Shown one piece after another: positions 4,199 to 63,822 of a DNA stretch of 64,000 nucleotides. A program made the position numbers and the translations under genes. A model generated the notes under the pieces. That model did no database searches. It saw nothing but the letters and a program-made list of their open reading frames with translations, and was not told the origin of the DNA. This stretch comes from Octopus vulgaris (taxonomy: Eukaryota), in the NCBI GenBank assembly GCA_951406725.2, contig OX597821.1, positions 1,426,001 to 1,490,000 of the forward strand. Direction: 5' to 3'. How positions within the stretch are numbered: the first letter of the stretch is position 1; each line of letters starts with the position of its first letter.

Positions 4199-4251
4199 AT
4201 ACTTAGATTTGTATACAATACATATATATATATTATATATGATAATAATAA

Positions 4252-4326
4252 TATGAGGGAATATTATTCCAAACTTACAGGGAAAAATTCGATTTAGAAA
4301 TATTAAATGAAATTTCCCAAAATATA

Positions 4327-4376
<50 letters not shown>

Positions 4377-4722
4377 TAGAAAAAGACCTTTTATCAATTC
4401 AATTCAATAATGAAAAAAATTAAATTATACCATCTAGAAAAAATTACATCTTATAGAAAGATTAAATATAAGATAAAACTTACACCAATGATTAAGTAAT
4501 GTGCAAAATAATAAATAAAACCTATATATTTCGTAGAATAACTACACGTGTTTCGTGGCTATATTCTACCAAATATATACGTTTTAATTACGATTTTGCA
4601 CATTACATAATCATTGGTATCAGTTTTATCTTATATTTAATCTTTCTATAAGATGAATTGTTTTCTAGATCGTATAATTTAATTTTTCATTAATGATTGA
4701 TGAAAGGTGTGTTTTTTTTCAA
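4252..4722. mobile_element. AT-rich fold-back element (family G) with hammerhead remnant at its centre
   Basis: Inverted arms ~4379-4540 and ~4562-4720; the centre reads ccacGAAACacgtGTAgtta on -; homologous to 35162-35460 and 37103-37380. Confidence 0.75.
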
Positions 4723-4756
4723 ATATATATTATATATAAATAATAATATATATACA

Positions 4757-4966
4757 TGTGACCGCGTGTGAATCGTTGGCGATTTTTCCCGCCGTCTTCC
4801 GTTCCTTGGATCTTTCCTTTTCCTATGTTTCTGACGAAGAGCTCCACTCGAAACGCTAAATCCTCCTCCTTTCTTTCCTTTCCTGAGCGTCCAATAACAC
4901 TATACTTGTTCCACTTCCTCACGTTGTTGTGTTTTCTCTTTGTGTTTTCATGCTAGGATTAACTAT
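4757..4966 (+). mobile_element. Penelope-like tail fragment (family D) with minimal hammerhead at 4827-4860
   Basis: gttt-CTGACGA-a-gag ctcca ctc-GAAA-cg-ct-aaat (U16.1 mutated); other copies at 41750-41940 and 63705-63822; flanked by (TA)n. Confidence 0.65.
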
Positions 4967-6253: not shown

Positions 6254-6712
6254 TAGACGAGAGCGTTAGTAACACAGAAGATTAAAATATAGAGAAGTGG
6301 AATGGAAGACAGAAAAAATTCTGACGAAATTTCTGTAGATTAATATATAAAAATATATATAAGATGGTTTTGATAGAAGATGATGAAAAAAAAAAAACAT
6401 ATAGAAAGAATCGGATAAAGATGATTTTCTGTGGAAAAAATGAAATAAAGATGATATAGACAAAGAAGATTTTCAGTTTGTTTTCTTTTATGAATAACTG
6501 ATTAACTATGGTTTGTATATGTGATTGATAAAAAATATATACACATAAAACATATATAGGCACGGGAGTGGCTGCGTGGTAAGAAGCTTCCTTCTCAACC
6601 ACCTGGTTCAGGGTCAAGTCTCACTGTGTGCCACGTTGGGCAAGTGCCTTCTCCTATAGCCTTGGGCCGACCAAAGTCTTGAGTAGATTTGGTATACGGA
6701 AACTGAAAGAAG

Positions 6713-6803
<91 letters not shown>

Positions 6804-6981
6804 ATAAATATTAGGGAATAAATCCAAATTTACAGGGAAAAAATCAGATTTAGGATTAAATCCAATTTTATAGTAAAATATTATATAATATTAATTCGAG
6901 ACAAAACCACTATTTTGCAAAACAAACAAGGAAAGACTTAATCAATACATAAAAATTTTGTTAATATAAAGAAATAAACCG

Positions 6982-7024
6982 CCACTACAATCGTTTCATG
7001 TCTTCAATGACATTCGTCAGGTGG
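6982..7024 (-). ncRNA. Type I minimal hammerhead ribozyme motif (canonical core)
   Basis: Exact reverse complement of 7061-7103. Confidence 0.85.
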
Positions 7025-7060
7025 ATTTTCGATCTCCTAATCTGTTTTAATTTATGAAAT

Positions 7061-7103
7061 CCACCTGACGAATGTCATTGAAGACATGAAACGATTGTAG
7101 TGG
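7061..7103 (+). ncRNA. Type I minimal hammerhead ribozyme motif (canonical core)
   Basis: ccac | CTGACGA | atgtc-attgaa-gacat | GAAA | c-gatt-g | TA | gtgg: stems I, II and III pair; GUA triplet, predicted cut after 7099. Confidence 0.85.
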
Positions 7104-7470
7104 CGGTTTATTTCTTTATATTAAAAAAAGTTTTATGCATTGATTAAGTCTTTCCTTGTTTGTTTTGCAAAATAGTGGTTTTGTCTCGAATTAATATTAT
7201 ACATATATATATATATATATAAATATATAGGCTTCTTGACAACTGATGTTGGTGTGTTTATGTCCCCGTAACTTAGCGGCTCGGCAAAAGAGCCCAATAG
7301 AATAAGTATAAGGCTTATAAAGAATAAGCCCTGGGGTCGATTTGCTCGACTAAAGGCGATGCTCCAGCATAGACACAGACAAATTACTGAAAGAAATAAA
7401 AGAATAAAGGAATATATACATGCATACGCAAACACACACACGCGCACATATGCTTGTATACATATATAGG

Positions 7471-7533
<63 letters not shown>

Positions 7534-15982: not shown

Positions 15983-17290
15983 GGTCAGGCGATCCATTTG
16001 CTGTCAACACCCGTTAAAAGGAGGGCTGGGCATGCCGTGGTTGATGATGCGCAGACACGCGCTGAGACTGCGGCATCTCTGGCTCTATGTAGACGACGGT
16101 GAACAGGTGTGGTCGCCGTTTGTGAGGCACGCTCTCCCGCAGCTCGTCTCCATGACCGAACTGCAGTCGTGGATCAAAAAGAGGCCGAGGAAGGGCGAAT
16201 GGCACCGCGAGTGTCGCGTTGCCCTCAAGCAACTCTGCCGTCCTGGGTCGACCTTAAGTGACTTCAACACAACCAAAGCATTCTATAGGGGTTTAGTGGA
16301 GGGAGGTACGACGACGAGCTCGGGGCGAACCTGGACGTCGACGAGGAGTACCTGACCCGCCTGTTCAGGACGACTTTCGGGCCAGGGCCCATGGACAACT
16401 TCCAGAGATCCCTGGCCTGGCAGTGCTACCGAGAAGCGCTACCCGTTCGGGATAAGCTCTACAGACACGGCTCGAGAAACACGGGGCCGACCTGCCCGAG
16501 ATGCGGTCAGAGCGACGAAACCGTTCTGCACGCACTCGTTCAGTGTCCAACAATTTCCGACCTGTGGGCTTATGTCGAACAACTGCTGTCACGTGTGGGA
16601 CGAGTCGGTTTATCAGCTGAGTCTATCGTCAATATTGTCACGCCTCCTTCCTTCAAACGGGAAGGAAGAGCTATTTTCATCATCCTTGTGGCTATGGCGA
16701 AAGAATGTATCTGGTGGACGCGTCTGAAAGGATTGGAGACAAACACTTTCCTCTCTGGTCAATCTCTCATCAACTTCTTCAAGTACCACTTGAAAAGGAA
16801 AGTGAGAGTAGAGAGGCAAGTTTTGTCTAGCGAATGTTTAAAAAAAGATGGGTGAATGTAGCAAGAATGGCACGTATGAATGACGAAGCCACCTTGAGCA
16901 TAGTCCTATGAACCCAGAAATCGAAAACAGAGAGTTGCTTATTTGCAAAAAAAAAAAAAAAAAAAGAAATATAAAATGTGACATCATTGACCGAGGTTAC
17001 CGTGGTCTTTTCCGTAGGCTTTTCTTTGCACGGGTAAACCTCACCTGTCCTCCCCTTTACACTTCATATTGACATTTCTGTGATAACGATCCCTATTGAT
17101 CAATTTTTTTCCTCCCCCCCTTTTTTTAAACCCCCTTTTTTTTGTCCTCTTTCTCTCCTTTTACGATCCCTTTTGATCGAAACTCCCCCTTCCTTTTTTT
17201 TTTTTTTTTTTTTCTTAAACCTTCAAAAGAAAAGCTCTACCTTGTAATTTGTTCTATCTGTGTGCAGCCCTGTGTGGCTAATAAAGAAAC
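15981..17290 (+). mobile_element. 5'-truncated Tx1/L1-group LINE: ORF2 C-terminus (zf-RVT) and 3' UTR
   Basis: [12 protein letters not shown]; AWQCYREALPVRDKL...CPRCGQSDETVLHALVQCP (CX2C..H..C); frameshifts near 16305 and 16845; stop 16909-16911; T-rich UTR with AATAAA at ~17280. Confidence 0.9.
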
Positions 17291-18224: not shown

Positions 18225-18260
<36 letters not shown>

Positions 18261-18262
<2 letters not shown>

Positions 18263-18978
18263 CAAAGGGTGAAATTAATTAATTAAGAAGTAATCAGTAA
18301 TTTCACCAAGTAGAATTCGGCATGTAAAAGACCAATTAATGGTAAGTTTAAGTAATACTAAATAATTAGGGTTCAGCAATTTAGTATTACTTAAACTTAC
18401 CATGAATTGGTCTTTTACATGCCAATTTCTACTTGGTGAAATTACTGATTACTTCTTAACTAATTAATTTCACCCTTTGTTATTATTGATAATGGTATTT
18501 CCTCCAAGAAAAAAACTGTAGCATCTTACTTTGGCAACACGCTGGTGGACGGGGGAGAGTGACTTACTCTCATTCACTTTTTGAATTTGGCGGTACTAGC
18601 ACGGTATACGTTCCCTCTGATACCGTGAGGTGAAGTGATATTTTCTGGTGCCTTCAAATTTAATACACAACTATTAATAATTGAGACGCAGTTATTTATA
18701 ATTGAAGAATCCTACGCTGATAAGGAAAATAGTCAGGTAAAGTATAATTATTTTTTATGCTCTATACTGGCTTGATTCCGAAACGCGCGTCCGTAGGCAA
18801 CTTAATATAGAATGATTTTCGTCATTTCTTTCTCTTTTACCTGCGTGGTTTGTTCTTGAGTGCTTTGGTTTTACTGGGATCTCCCTTTAAAGTAGAAAGA
18901 ATAGCCAAAACGTTTTGACTGCTATTTCTGAATTCGGTGTGTGGTGAGGCAAATCGTTGCTGAACCCTTAATTGCTTA

Positions 18979-18980
<2 letters not shown>
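18261..18980 (+). mobile_element. Hammerhead-bearing element with 5' fold-back, inserted in (TA)n
   Basis: Inverted arms 18261-18363 and 18379-18481; hammerhead at 18711-18797; 3' end (gtggtgaggc..gctgaacccttaatt) also seen at 32430-32507. Confidence 0.75.
18711..18797 (+). ncRNA. Type I hammerhead motif with G8A core substitution
   Basis: cctacg | CTGATAA | ggaa...ttcc (long stem II) | GAAA | c-gcgc-g | TC | cgtagg; 6-bp stem I, palindromic acgcgcgt, GUC triplet. Confidence 0.8.
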
Positions 18981-19045
<65 letters not shown>

Positions 19046-23184: not shown

Positions 23185-24147
23185 TTATTTTTATCTAGTT
23201 TCATCTCACAAGCTGTGGCCATGCTGGGGCACCGCCATTTGGTGTTGCTACATGATTTTACTTCACGAAAGCTTTTTAGCAACTGCCATTTGGTGCATGA
23301 GAGAGTTCGATGCAGCTGCCCTCATCTGCACCTCCTGCCGTGAAGTTGGTTCATCTGGGACACCTGACAAAAAGAGATCCAGTTTATTTTAAAGACATCT
23401 GCATCCACCCCATGCAGGTCTCTTAGGTTCTTCGGGAGGATATTGAAGAGCTGTGGGCCTCGGAAGCCCAGGCTATCACAGTATCTTGTCCTACATCTTG
23501 ATGGCAAATTTGGAGTCCTTGGCACTGTGCAGTGGCGCCCAGTTCTGGCATTTGTGTAACTCTCGATGCCAAAGTTTGGGACAAGTCCTTCTAGGATCTT
23601 CCAGATGTATATTATGGCATATCTTTCTCGCCTACGCTCTAAGGAATAGAGTCTTAATCTCTTGAGTTTTTACCAATAGCTTATATGCTGCACAGAGGCT
23701 ATCTTCTTCGTGTAGCTTCGTTGGATCGCCTCAAGTTCTGTGATTAACTTGACACTGGATGGTGACCATAGCTGAGAGCAATAATCAAAGTGGCTTAGGA
23801 CAAGTGTCCTCCAGAGGACCATCATGGTTTCCTGGTCTCTTGTTCTAAATGTTCTAAGAATCCATCCAGTCAGCCGCCTACATTTCATTGCCAATTTACC
23901 AACATGCACATGAAAGGTTGCATCATTACTCATGTAAATACCCAGGTCTCGCACTGATTGTGCCTCTGGGATTGCAATCCCTCTAGGTCCAGTGTATTTA
24001 TTGGGTATTGCATTTAGTTTTGCATGCTGATAGCATAAAGCTTGAAACTTTTCAGCATTGAACTGCATGCTATTCTTTTCAGCCCACTTGTATATTTTGT
24101 CCAGCTCACATTGCAGGTGCTTAGTGTCTTCAGGGTTCTGTACTGCC

Positions 24148-35100: not shown

Positions 35101-36082
35101 GTTTCTATGTATGTATATCTATTCATTTCTTTCTTCCTTCATATATATATATATATATATATGAGGGAATATCATTCCAAACTTACAGGGAAAAATTCAA
35201 TTTAGAAATACTAAATCAAATTTCACAAAATATAATATATATATAAATTAGAAAAAAACCACCTTTTATCAATTCAAACTTAAAAATTAAATTGCACCAT
35301 CTAGAAAATTACATATAACAGAAAGATTAAATATACGATAAAAAATATAACGATGATTAAGTAATGTGCAAAATAATAAATAAAACGTAAATATTTGGTA
35401 GAATAACGACACGTGTTTCGTGGCTATATTTAAGAAATGATTATAGTAAAAATATTAGATGCTACATTAATAATATAGTTAGTTAATGTAATGGGTCTGT
35501 GTGTTTGTGAATCATTTCCTATTTTTGATTCCAGTATGTATAACCTGTACTAGCATTGGGTATATTAATTTAGACACTTAGACCTATTTTTATACATTTA
35601 AAATCCAGTCATATTAATTTTATCGATAAGCTTAGTAACGTTTGTTTATCAATATTATTTAGATTTTGCATTATATTGAGTTTGATTGTTGTTATTATTA
35701 TTATTGTTATTGACTTGGTTTGTAGTGGGATGTAGGTTGTAGTTGAATGTCTTCACAGTGTATTGTTCATTTGTTCTTATATTTTTCGTACCTTTCTTTA
35801 ATTCATGGGGCTTAGATGTTTTTCGTATTTTTTATTAGTAAATAGTTTTCGCCATTTTCATTGATAATTTATTCTATTTGTTTACACTAAGTTTCCACGC
35901 GTTTAATTTTTATAAACACTGAGACCTATATATTTTTTACGTTTAAAATTCAGTTATATTATTTTCATCGACAAGCTAAGTAACGGTTTTTGCTTATAAA
36001 TATTATCTGGCTTTTGAATTAGATTGTGTTTGATTATTATTGTTATTATTATTGTTGTAGAAATATTATTAGTTTTTATATA

Positions 36083-36307
36083 CTCTTTACTCTTTACTCT
36101 TTTACTTGTTTCAGTCATTTGACTGCGGCCATGCTGGAGCACCGCCTTTACTCGAGCAACTCGATCCCGGGACTTATTCTTTTGTAAGCCCAGTACTTAT
36201 TCCATCGGTCTCTTTTGCCGAACCTCTAAGTAACGGGGACATAAACACACCAGCATCGGTTGTCAAGCAATGCTAGGGGGACAAACACAGACACACAAAC
36301 ACACACA

Positions 36308-36344
<37 letters not shown>

Positions 36345-36477
36345 GACGGGCTTCTTTCAGTTTCCGTCTACCAAATCCACTCACAAGGCTTTGGTCGGCC
36401 CGAGGCTATAGTAGAAGACTCTTGCCCAAGGTGCCACGCAGTGGGACTGAACCTGGAACCATGTGGTTGGTAAACAA
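36083..36477 (-). mobile_element. SINE family B (well conserved, lacks extreme 5' end)
   Basis: Reverse complement of the family B pattern. Confidence 0.9.
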
Positions 36478-36986
36478 GATAGTTATAAGTTATGATACTT
36501 ATTAATTATGATATCTATTTATTTATAATGCTTTATTATTATTTTTATAAAGGGATATAACGTATTACATATAATTTGATTTAATAATTAATTTTGTTAG
36601 ACAATATATTATTTAATAATTAGGTGGTATATTTATCAAGTAGTATTACAGTTAAGTAAATTAGTTTTTATATAATTGATATTTTGGTCAACTATATTAT
36701 TGAGTGATATATTAAATCTATAGATACTACATATATATTAATTATATAGTTAGTTTATATAATGGGTGTGTCTATATTTGAACCATTTCTTATTTTTGAT
36801 TCCAGTATTTATGGCTTGTACTAGCATTGTGTATATTAATTAATATTAAGGTTTTTGTATTATTTGTTTAATGGGTAGTAGACTTTATTTGGATGTTTAT
36901 TAAATAAATCTATTAATTAATAATTTGATTTAATGTATATAGTTTAAAGTGTTGTACTTAGGTTTTACTTAATGTATATTTTGTAT

Positions 36987-37028
<42 letters not shown>

Positions 37029-37102
37029 AAAGAATATATTTATTTTTAAAAGATTATTTACGTATATTTATTAATTAATTATTTTATTATTGTAGTTATC
37101 TT

Positions 37103-37206
37103 TAACCTGATGAGTGGCTATATTTATATTGAAGTGATTTTACTACTACTACTAATATTTTTACTATAATAATTTCTTAAATATAACCACGAAACACGTG
37201 TCGTTA
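37103..37206 (+). ncRNA. Type I hammerhead ribozyme motif (canonical core, long stem II loop)
   Basis: taac | CTGATGA | gtggctatattt...aaatataaccac | GAAA | c-acgt-g | TC | gtta; palindromic acacgtgt; predicted cut after 37202. Confidence 0.85.
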
Positions 37207-37964
37207 TTCTACCAAATATTTACGTTTTATTTATTATTTTGCACATTACATTAAAATGGAATAAAAATCATCGTTATATTTTTTATCTTATATTTAACTT
37301 TCTATTATATGTAATTTTCGAGATGGTGTAATTTAATTTTGAATTTTGAATTGATAAAATGTGTTTTTTTCTAATTTATATATATATATGTCTGTTTGTT
37401 TTTATGATCATTTATAGTAAAAACAATTTTAGATTGATCTGATGGGTTATTCTATACTTCTGTAGAGTACAAATTTACTATTCTTAAACAAAAATGTTTT
37501 TGGTGGTGACTTCAAATATTCGACCTGGTTAACCATTGTCGGACGTTAGAGTTTCTGCTGAATTAAAATCTTTCTTCGGTGAGCGGGTCTGAAAGAGGTG
37601 ATGAATTATCGGGTTGCTTGTTATAGAAAGGAGTTTTGGATAATCTTTAGCTGATTAAACTTGGGGTTTAGAATTTATCCATGCCTATAAAACTTTGTAA
37701 ACAACTCTGTATATGTTTCTGCATTGTTAAGTAGGCACAAAGTGTGACAGTATTTTTGTTGCTTTTGGTATTATTGGATTTAATACTTTTCTTTGACAAT
37801 GGTAAACCTCAAGTTACAAAGTACTTAATCCTTTATTAATTGGGTGCGTCAAATGTAAATAATGTAAATAAAACTAGATATGGTTTCACCTCCCCAGATA
37901 AATACAAAATTTATTAGTCATGGTAACGCAATAGATTACTTTATATTTCATATATATATATACA

Positions 37965-40341: not shown

Positions 40342-41732
40342 AAAAATTTATTTAGTTCCCCTTTTCTCTCTGACCCTACCTCCCAACCTGGCTCGTTCCC
40401 CTGCTCCCGCCCACGTTGCCGCAATTGCCCGTACCTCTCCAACACCACCCTCCTCACCGGCACCCATCATCGACCCTATTGCATCTCCTGCTCTCTCTGC
40501 CATTCCCTGTACATCGGACAAACGGGATGCCGCTTGGCCGACCGGTTCGCGGAACACCTCCGAGACATCCGCCTCGCCAATGAGACACCAGTCTCACGCC
40601 ATTTCCGCTCCAACGGTCACTCCTTGCAACTCCTGTCTGTGTTCGGATTGTCCTTGCACAGAGGCCATCCGGATTCCCGCTTGCGCCGTGAACAGGGATT
40701 AATCTTCTCTCTTCGCTCTTTTATGCCATTTGGGTTCAACTCTCCCCCCTCATCTAACCTCCCCCCACTCCTACTTCTCTTCAGTCCTTCATCTTTTCAC
40801 CCCTACTCTCTTTCCCTCCTCTTCCCTTCTTCCCCTTCTTCCCTCTTCTTCTTTCTTCTTTCCTCTTCCCCTTCTCTCTTTCTCTCTACTCCCTCACTCC
40901 CCTTCTCTCCCCCTCTCCTCCTATCCTCCTCCACCCCCTCCTCCTCTCCCTCACCCCTCCTCTCCATACCACTTCTTTCCCCTTCCCTCCCCCTCCTTAC
41001 CCTCTTCTCCCCTTCTCCTCTCCCTCCTCCTTCTCCTCTCTCACCCTCATCTCCTCTCTCCCCCCCCCGCCTCCTCCTCCCCTCCTCTCTCTTCTCACCC
41101 CCTCTTACTCTCCCCACAACCGCCACTCTACCCCAACCCACAGCCGAACCCACACCCCACATGGGCTTTCCCCACCTCCCCACAACATCACACCACACTA
41201 CACTACACTATACAACATTACACATCACATCACAACACACCACCCACAGCACACCGCCCACACACTCATCCCCACATCTTTACACCTACACATACATACA
41301 CATATCATATCACAACACACCACCACACACCCATCCCCATATCTCCACACCCACACATACATACATACACACGTCCAGACCACCAGCCCTCTTTCACACG
41401 CACATACATACTCTCTTATACACACACGCACCTTCATGTTGGGGCGAAGTCACTTGACCCTGTTATCTCCCCTACTATCCCTCTAGCGTCTAACGTCTGA
41501 CCTCTGACCTCTGAGTTCAGCCTGAAGTCAGAACGCCATGATGGACCGTTAGCTCCTAGACGCATTTTTTTCTCTCCTTGTTTCTTTTCTGTGTATCTTT
41601 CTGTTGAAGAGCGTAGGCTCGAAACGTAAAAGACTTGTTCTATTTCTATTCCTGAGCGCCATACTAATACAATTGTTTGTTTGTACTCCACCTGCCCTCA
41701 TCTTTCGTTTATTTTCGTAAACTTTCCCGTTA
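40342..41732 (+). mobile_element. 5'-truncated Neptune-like Penelope element: Cys motif and GIY-YIG, pyrimidine-rich UTR, family E tail
   Basis: One frame over 40381-40745: GSFPCSRPRCRNCPY...YCISCSLCHSLYIGQTGCRLADRFAEHLRDI...SRHF...RLRREQGLIFSLRSFMPFGFN; hammerhead variant at 41596-41633; ends in (TA)n. Confidence 0.88.
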
Positions 41733-41749
41733 TATATATATATATATAA

Positions 41750-41940
41750 TGTGACCGCGTGTGTATCGTTGGCAATTTTTTTCCCTCCGTCTTCCCTTCT
41801 TTGGACCTTTCCTTTTCCTATGTTTCTGACTAAGAGCTCCGCTCTTTCCTTATTTCTTGAGCGTCCAATAATACTATACTTGTTCCATGTCTTCGCGTTG
41901 TTGTGTTTTCTCTCTGTGTTTTCATGTTTGGATTAACTAT
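41750..41940 (+). mobile_element. Family D tail with the 3' half of the hammerhead deleted
   Basis: Matches 4757-4966, but ctgactaagagctccgctc runs directly into tttcctt. Confidence 0.7.
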
Positions 41941-63704: not shown

Positions 63705-63816
63705 TATCCTTGGTGTTCCTTCCTTCTTTCTTTCCTTTCTTGAGCGTCCAATAACACTATACTTGTTCCACGTCCTCGCGTTGTTGCGTTTTCTCTTTGT
63801 GTTTTCATGTTTGGAT

Positions 63817-63822
<6 letters not shown>
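63705..63822 (+). mobile_element. Family D tail, 3' part only
   Basis: tgagcgtccaataacactatacttgttccac...ggattaactata, then (TA)n. Confidence 0.75.

Follow-up and report, generated by a model that had tools for sequence, protein, structure and literature searches.

Hammerhead ribozyme motifs stand back to back on opposite strands in a nearly perfect fold-back at positions 6803-7201 of a 64,000-nt stretch of the Octopus vulgaris genome (the window, meaning the whole stretch of DNA analysed here). The locus raises the question of whether such a pair is a trace left by the insertion of a retroelement or a device in which a ribozyme is held in check by its own antisense. Both readings were offered in the original prediction, as an inverted pseudo-LTR (pLTR) product of a Penelope-type insertion and as a self-inhibiting hairpin. 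Support for the first comes from the anatomy of the locus, from three sibling fold-backs whose junctions differ, from public contigs and from the literature. The fold-back is an asymmetric head-to-head pair of one element end in a TA tract, very probably produced by the dead-on-arrival insertion of a Penelope-like retroelement (PLE) family that carries a minimal hammerhead in its pLTR.

Anatomy of the fold-back and its host SINE

The locus is composed of the following features (window positions).

6555-6714, plus strand: 5' half of the host SINE, with a tRNA-like head and a B-box-like segment that differs from other copies (12 other BLAST matches in the window, the best at 79-85% identity)
6715-6802, no strand: left part of the internal (TA)n of the SINE, the insertion target (same tract in other SINE copies)
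6803-6883, minus strand: tail of the left copy, 81 nt, unpaired and on one side only (the tails heading the fold-backs at 4244 and 35155 are 76-78% alike by BLAST)
6840-6869, minus strand: predicted 13-bp stem-loop in the tail RNA, a candidate recognition site for the RT or endonuclease
6884-7028, minus strand: left arm, a pLTR-like element end (from the inverted-repeat comparison)
6982-7024, minus strand: left type I hammerhead of minimal form, with the cut expected between 6986 and 6985
7029-7056, minus strand: spacer of 28 nt, 5'-ward part of the left copy (contig pieces, records 8, 16, 31 and 32)
7057-7058, no strand: head-to-head junction with a microhomology overlap of 2-3 nt (junction sequence; record 32 matches to 7058 and then departs)
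7057-7201, plus strand: right arm, an inverted, tail-less, 5'-truncated copy
7061-7103, plus strand: right minimal type I hammerhead, predicted cut after 7099
7203-7229, no strand: right part of the (TA)n, in which a target-site duplication is unreadable
7230-7412, plus strand: 3' half of the host SINE, lacking a TG-rich stretch (roughly 35-45 nt) of other copies (15 other BLAST matches)

The two arms are 145 nt each and complementary at 142 of 145 positions, with mismatches at 6960/7125, 6955/7130 and 6947/7138. Near-identical arms of this length had been predicted and are present, and the spacer between them is 28 nt instead of the ~29 bp first given. The asymmetry of the unit had been overlooked: the left copy has an 81-nt unpaired extension (6803-6883), which the right copy lacks. 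The left copy runs on the minus strand from 7058 to 6803 (256 nt) and comprises the spacer, the hammerhead, about 100 nt of AT-rich arm and the tail, and the tail-less right copy (145 nt, plus strand) starts at 7057, so that both overlap by 2-3 nt. The spacer continues the left copy in the 5' direction and is no separate loop module, because four of 32 contig pieces pass without a break from the left arm into it. Folded as the minus strand, the fold-back reaches a predicted -235.7 kcal/mol (z = -37). The unit is non-coding, its longest stop-free frame on either strand being 39 aa, and a coding role was rejected on this ground; the frame opened by an ATG where stem II begins is only five codons long, and no open frame of note is present in the tail.

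The stem-loop of the tail may form, but it is unproven: in a consensus hairpin over three tails compensatory pairs number 0 of 18, and the two common read variants within it cut both ways, since the one at 6845 turns a wobble pair into a Watson-Crick pair and the one at 6858 breaks a pair near the loop.

The SINE halves are collinear around the insertion, the best of the other copies in the window are approximately 79-85% identical to them, and an internal TA tract is present in all seven other SINE copies printed. The placement of the fold-back inside the internal (TA)n of a "family B" SINE was correct as regards the tract and the repeated SINE-like family; the family name was a label of that first reading and was not confirmed. 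Given this divergence of the SINE, the insertion is much younger than its host. Within 7203-7235 the SINE has neither the TG-rich stretch that follows the TA tract in other copies nor some 5 nt ahead of that stretch, a loss that may date from the insertion. ARAGORN returned no genes.

The two hammerheads

The hammerheads at 7061-7103 (plus) and 7024-6982 (minus) are letter-identical over 43 nt, point outward and begin 4 nt from the junction side of each arm. Both contain a GUA cut site, the full conserved core, a 4-bp stem I, a 5-bp stem II closed by A-U and not by G-C, and a stem III of 2 bp whose hexamer is self-complementary. The expectation of identical, canonical, outward-pointing ribozymes was therefore right about identity, orientation and completeness of the core, while the motif is of the minimal and not the canonical form. 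A strict descriptor of the minimal hammerhead matches three times in the window, whereas 100 of 100 dinucleotide shuffles contain no match. Rfam yields no gathering hits in the window; 22 matches at E up to 10 in 6500-7500, none to a hammerhead family, were discarded as generic hairpins (e.g., miRNA precursors) scoring far below thresholds.

Minimal hammerheads (min-HHRs) of metazoan PLEs have a consensus with a bulged base, a G10.1-C11.1 pair and a helix II of 7-8 bp, according to the relevant part of Cervera and De la Pena (2014, PMC4209133). The octopus motif shares with them the conserved core, the short helix I and the palindromic positions 15.2-16.2 and loop 3, and a dimer with an intermolecular stem III is predicted at -20.8 kcal/mol; it departs from the consensus tendencies in having no bulged base before 10.1, A10.1-U11.1 instead of G10.1-C11.1, and a helix II of 5 bp. 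As modelled, it behaves like a min-HHR with a non-consensus helix II, and cleavage is predicted for the dimer. In the assays described in that paper and in a review (PMC6765202), single min-HHRs show no detectable cleavage in vitro and dimers cleave weakly. In the parent RNA the hammerhead would serve as a dimer, through its self-complementary stem III. Variants listed from contigs fall in loop 2 (7005, 7077) or at 6992, where the variant letter (27-42% of depth) renders stem III perfectly palindromic, and none of those listed, a set that leaves three indels aside, falls in the core. The sparing of the core suggests that parent elements keep the ribozyme under selection.

Sibling fold-backs and related elements in the window

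Self-comparison of the masked window revealed 18 local inverted matches, four of them fold-backs tied to hammerhead motifs (6803-7201, 4244-4720, 35155-37387 and 18258-18982), and all four border a TA tract on at least one side. Their arms are separated by 28, 21, 1693 and 15 nt and are 98, 91, 96 and 95% identical, respectively. The insertions at 4244-4720 and 35155-37387 belong to one family, with a different, long-stem hammerhead that is complete at 37103-37206. Both have tails on the left side only, 76-78% like 6803-6883, and in both the second arm stops at the tail boundary, although their junctions differ. Judging from these sequences, the plan of a tail, a truncated copy and an inverted tail-less copy recurs and the junction does not. 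The shared homology covers the last ~125 nt (6803-6927 versus 35155-35279 and 4244-4342), and hammerheads and 5' parts are unalignable. These final ~125 nt are, on this alignment, a 3' cassette shared by the two families.

The 4244-4720 copy is an older fold-back, with arms 91% alike, a 21-nt gap and a 4-nt junction overlap, and its right arm starts 2 nt past the predicted hammerhead cut of the family, a single case that would fit a cleaved template. The 35155-37387 insertion consists of a tail and a truncated copy on the minus strand, followed by about 1.9 kb on the plus strand ending in the complete type I hammerhead (37103-37206), whose stem II region is unusually long (78 nt); it includes internal duplications and a SINE at ~36090-36480, and no ORF of note. 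A third family is represented by 18258-18982, with a fold-back at 18258-18484 and a hammerhead of altered core at ~18693-18797. Since the 15-nt spacer of this fold-back is the reverse complement of its own 3' end (~18960-18975), the plus-strand copy looks like a circularly permuted, retrozyme-like monomer of ~600 nt.

Other remnants lie elsewhere in the window. At 40390-40737 there is a PLE-type GIY-YIG endonuclease remnant (45% to P0001, E 8e-28); Pfam gave no family for it and one family among the five frames compared, and the remnant was placed by its match to P0001. It is followed by a pLTR-like end (41540-41730) containing a minimal hammerhead-like motif (~41598-41632) with a bulged A, a G-C closing pair and a variant core. 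A fourth repeat family (4750-4965, 41744-41939 and 63721-63822), which includes a degenerate hammerhead-like motif at ~4828-4862, lies beside TA tracts each time and is twice stacked directly against another PLE-like end. LINE fragments are found at 16289-16855 and 23670-24146; they comprise a zf-RVT domain (Pfam PF13966, E 1.8e-08) and a segment with similarity to proteins that contain an RT.

Copies in public sequencing contigs

Parts of the unit are contained in 20 of the 24 listed sequencing runs (8 studies, 4 organisms), and 1377, 2332, 1721 and 40 contigs from four runs were aligned to it. In the three large runs, summed depth, which is not a copy number, falls from ~0.3-1.7 million in the tail and the distal arm to ~9-165 thousand in the left hammerhead and 4-56 thousand in the spacer. 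A variable linker at ~6940-6980 also lowers contig depth. The pattern fits 5' truncation of a very abundant, 3'-biased family. All three listed joints connect the left part with the right arm at positions that differ from the one here (6890/7160, 6923/7146 and 6958/7146), each in one contig with a short side of 22-27 letters, and, read from sequence, they would resemble head-to-head junctions at other positions. At 6882 and 6894 loose contig ends pass into (TA)n, so that, at the level of contigs, the family is shown to have a tail-less class of ends.

The junction at 7057/7058 is crossed by none of 32 contig pieces (of 5494). Two of the four pieces that enter the spacer pass into unlike sequence at 7053 and 7058, and not into the right arm. 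The match of one contig of run X2 ends at 7053. Two contigs of run X8 both depart at 7058 (agreement 0.65, probably unrelated flanks), which hints weakly at a defined 5' end there instead of a random stop. The RNA origin of X8 is only guessed, and it was treated as DNA-like evidence. A minority letter at 6897/7188 is common to both arms, the other allele making up 73-82% of depth, which fits a single template. Exact-pattern scans (five of five) for the hammerhead in metagenome, genome and viral contigs and for the tail in metagenome and genome contigs returned no loci, in collections that are not animal genomes and are uninformative on copy number. With contigs as the source, and 32 of 5494 pieces, these data give weak support to a unit that would be dispersed and 5'-truncated, with variable junctions.

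Origin of the fold-back

The locus shows the traits of EN+ PLE insertions, namely a pLTR-type end with a type I hammerhead, an adjacent, inverted, 5'-truncated head-to-head copy and a one-sided tail. Against a PLE reading are the length of the tail (81 nt versus 30-40 nt in the papers) and a stem II that lacks the typical bulge and G10.1-C11.1. No autonomous RT/GIY-YIG member of the family was found in the 64-kb window, where the GIY-YIG remnant bears a different hammerhead family, and the link to a PLE protein, likely from sequence, comes from anatomy and hammerhead type and not from an ORF. The RT/GIY-YIG protein of an autonomous copy, acting in trans, would bind uncleaved family RNA near the tail and nick both strands of the AT-rich target. 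By analogy with an Anolis PLE in vitro, one target end would prime cDNA at an outer start site (the tail end, 6803) and the other at an inner one (the arm end, 6884 = 7201). Both cDNAs would halt shortly past the hammerhead and be joined head-to-head through the 2-3 nt of microhomology.

This two-ended priming has a little better than an even chance of being the route taken. Provided that the origin is a PLE, a considerable possibility, short of an even one, is snap-back self-priming, in which a cDNA begun at the tail end would fold back at 7058 through a few base pairs and copy itself to 6884; either would be a by-product of PLE insertion. Three of the four fold-backs in the window have loops of at most 28 nt (28, 21 and 15 nt), which favours snap-back over two-ended priming, and the junction overlaps (4 nt at 4562, 2-3 nt at 7057-7058) and the minority allele common to both arms point the same way. 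Junction palindromes in rotifer Penelopes have been read as self-priming in the part of the literature that deals with them (PMC3846280). However, the 3' end at 7058 forms no favourable fold-back when folded as DNA (-1.0 kcal/mol, with another pairing), there is a 1.7-kb offset in the 35155-37387 insertion, and copying back would have to end precisely at the edge of the tail in each of three insertions, a coincidence that a second RT start site would account for directly.

The alternative that the fold-back itself moves, as a non-autonomous hairpin retroelement or MITE-like element, either whole or as a unit of 256 nt whose 5' end is fixed at ~7058, is improbable. It would account for the contig matches that end at 7058 (two X8 contigs) and 7053 (one X2 contig), and the lack of an ORF and the youth of the arms (three differences in 145) would suit it, but the junction recurs in none of the 32 pieces, the three listed joints are all elsewhere, spacer depth is far below tail depth, the ends lack the symmetry of terminal inverted repeats, and the sister family has two different junctions in one window. 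MITEs and fold-back DNA transposons have terminal inverted repeats at both ends and a fixed, recurring internal junction; the 81-nt unpaired left end and a junction not seen to recur among the 32 contig pieces speak against a DNA transposon of this kind. Only slightly less improbable is a bolder proposal in two parts, that the 81-nt tail and its stem-loop form a cassette for RT loading that is portable and shared by families with unrelated hammerheads, and that the 256-nt unit, its 5' end being fixed at ~7058, constitutes a dedicated non-autonomous element routinely inserting as a perfect hairpin; if true, the genome would hold thousands of young dsRNA templates, silencing their own family and feeding A-to-I editing. 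An assembly or library chimera from a fold-back read is very unlikely indeed. The missing junction among the contig pieces would be expected from it, and repeats of this type trouble assemblies, as stated in a section of PMC8557442; on the other hand, the arms differ at three sites, the flanking SINE halves are collinear and not mirrored, the tail is one-sided, and three older fold-backs, with arms 91-96% alike, follow the same plan.

Is the fold-back a ribozyme switch?

One ribozyme per strand, each preceded by its own antisense, had been predicted, and this holds, as transcription of either strand reaches the antisense arm first and the ribozyme afterwards. It does not follow that dsRNA formation, giving an ADAR or Dicer substrate, competes with ribozyme folding in a hairpin selected for tuning self-cleavage, and such a function is very improbable. 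Read-through RNA of either strand would, by modelling, form a 145-bp duplex, and small RNAs arise from Penelope copies in rotifers, as reported in a part of PMC3846280. Nevertheless, forcing stems I and II costs 72.8-73.7 kcal/mol in the presence of the antisense arm versus 4.2-5.9 kcal/mol in a single arm, and with a gap of ~73 kcal/mol, and the antisense transcribed ahead, there would be no balance to tune. Each strand has one minimal hammerhead of the dimer-dependent type (single ones lacked detectable cleavage in the assays of PMC4209133). Because the two hammerheads lie on opposite strands, a cis dimer between them was discarded. Nothing indicates recurrence of the 7057/7058 junction or transcription of the locus.

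Pol III terminates at T runs. Four TTTT runs, expected stops, lie between the SINE head and the spacer and eight up to the end of the right arm, and, with these eight, the SINE head is unlikely to drive Pol III transcription of the hairpin, a reading that was rejected. The ribozymes are predicted to be locked inactive in the duplex, as dead ribozymes and not as partners in a balance, and, since read-through RNA is modelled as a 145-bp duplex with the ribozyme unfolded, the fold-back is likely a by-product instead of a device. In the event of read-through by a host transcript, the duplex would be an ADAR or Dicer substrate, as any young inverted repeat would be.

Comparison with known systems

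No description of this family of hammerhead, arm and tail was found in the literature searched; supplements, Repbase and Dfam, which may contain it, lay outside the search. The repeat annotation of Octopus vulgaris (PMC13282606) lists 31 recently active Penelope-like families, and the word "hammerhead" is absent from its main text. In ordinary terms, the locus is one more truncated PLE end in a published pattern of an inverted copy plus a tail. Its value is modest, as clean material for studying how PLEs make head-to-head inversions: in a young, very high-copy family with two classes of 3' ends, junction microhomologies and subfamily-diagnostic letters, counting could tell two-ended priming from snap-back, and a tail common to two families with differing hammerheads points to a testable cis signal.

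Non-LTR retrozymes of animals, as described in the part of a preprint devoted to them (bioRxiv 10.64898/2026.07.22.740005), are non-coding, carry type I hammerheads and have a proposed origin in PLE pLTRs. The octopus unit is likewise non-coding with a type I hammerhead, but retrozymes are head-to-tail tandem units, each with a hammerhead, whereas here the copies are head-to-head with one ribozyme per strand, and the tandem definition (at least two head-to-tail units, each with a complete hammerhead) excludes this unit from that class.

The min-HHRs of metazoan PLEs, as presented in the sections of PMC4209133 that concern them, include dual motifs ~100-700 bp apart on opposite strands. Like them, the octopus motif has the full core, a helix I of 4 bp, a tiny helix III that is self-complementary, dispersed copies and close opposite-strand pairs. 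It differs in its 5-bp helix II with A10.1-U11.1 and no bulge and in the distance between motifs, which at 36 nt lies below that range.

In vitro, the Anolis Poseidon element PAc (Frangieh et al., 2024, PMC11167929, in the part on target-primed synthesis) has both target strands cut and extended, its tail is delimited by two RT start sites, and the RNA it uses as substrate is mainly uncleaved. Two classes of 3' ends (with and without tail), an AT-rich target, an uncut hammerhead in the insert and a predicted stem-loop in the tail are found in both systems; in PAc, however, the tail lies inside an ORF that starts in stem II, unlike the five-codon frame seen here.

The closest resemblance is to EN+ PLE insertions. 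Their standard structure, in the corresponding passages of Craig et al. (2021, PMC8557442), includes an inverted 5'-truncated copy by the 5' end, a tail of 30-40 bp on one end and (TA)n targets, and those of Arkhipova et al. (2013, PMC3846280) describe a head-to-head inverted pLTR that is shorter than the direct one and overlaps it, with a tail on one inverted pLTR. The octopus locus agrees with these accounts in the shorter, slightly overlapping head-to-head inverted copy, the one-sided tail, the hammerhead in the repeat, the microsatellite target and the 5' truncation. It differs from them in having no ORF, a longer tail (81 nt) and no readable target-site duplication. By analogy with these systems, the fold-back behaves like an EN+ PLE insertion in every respect tested.
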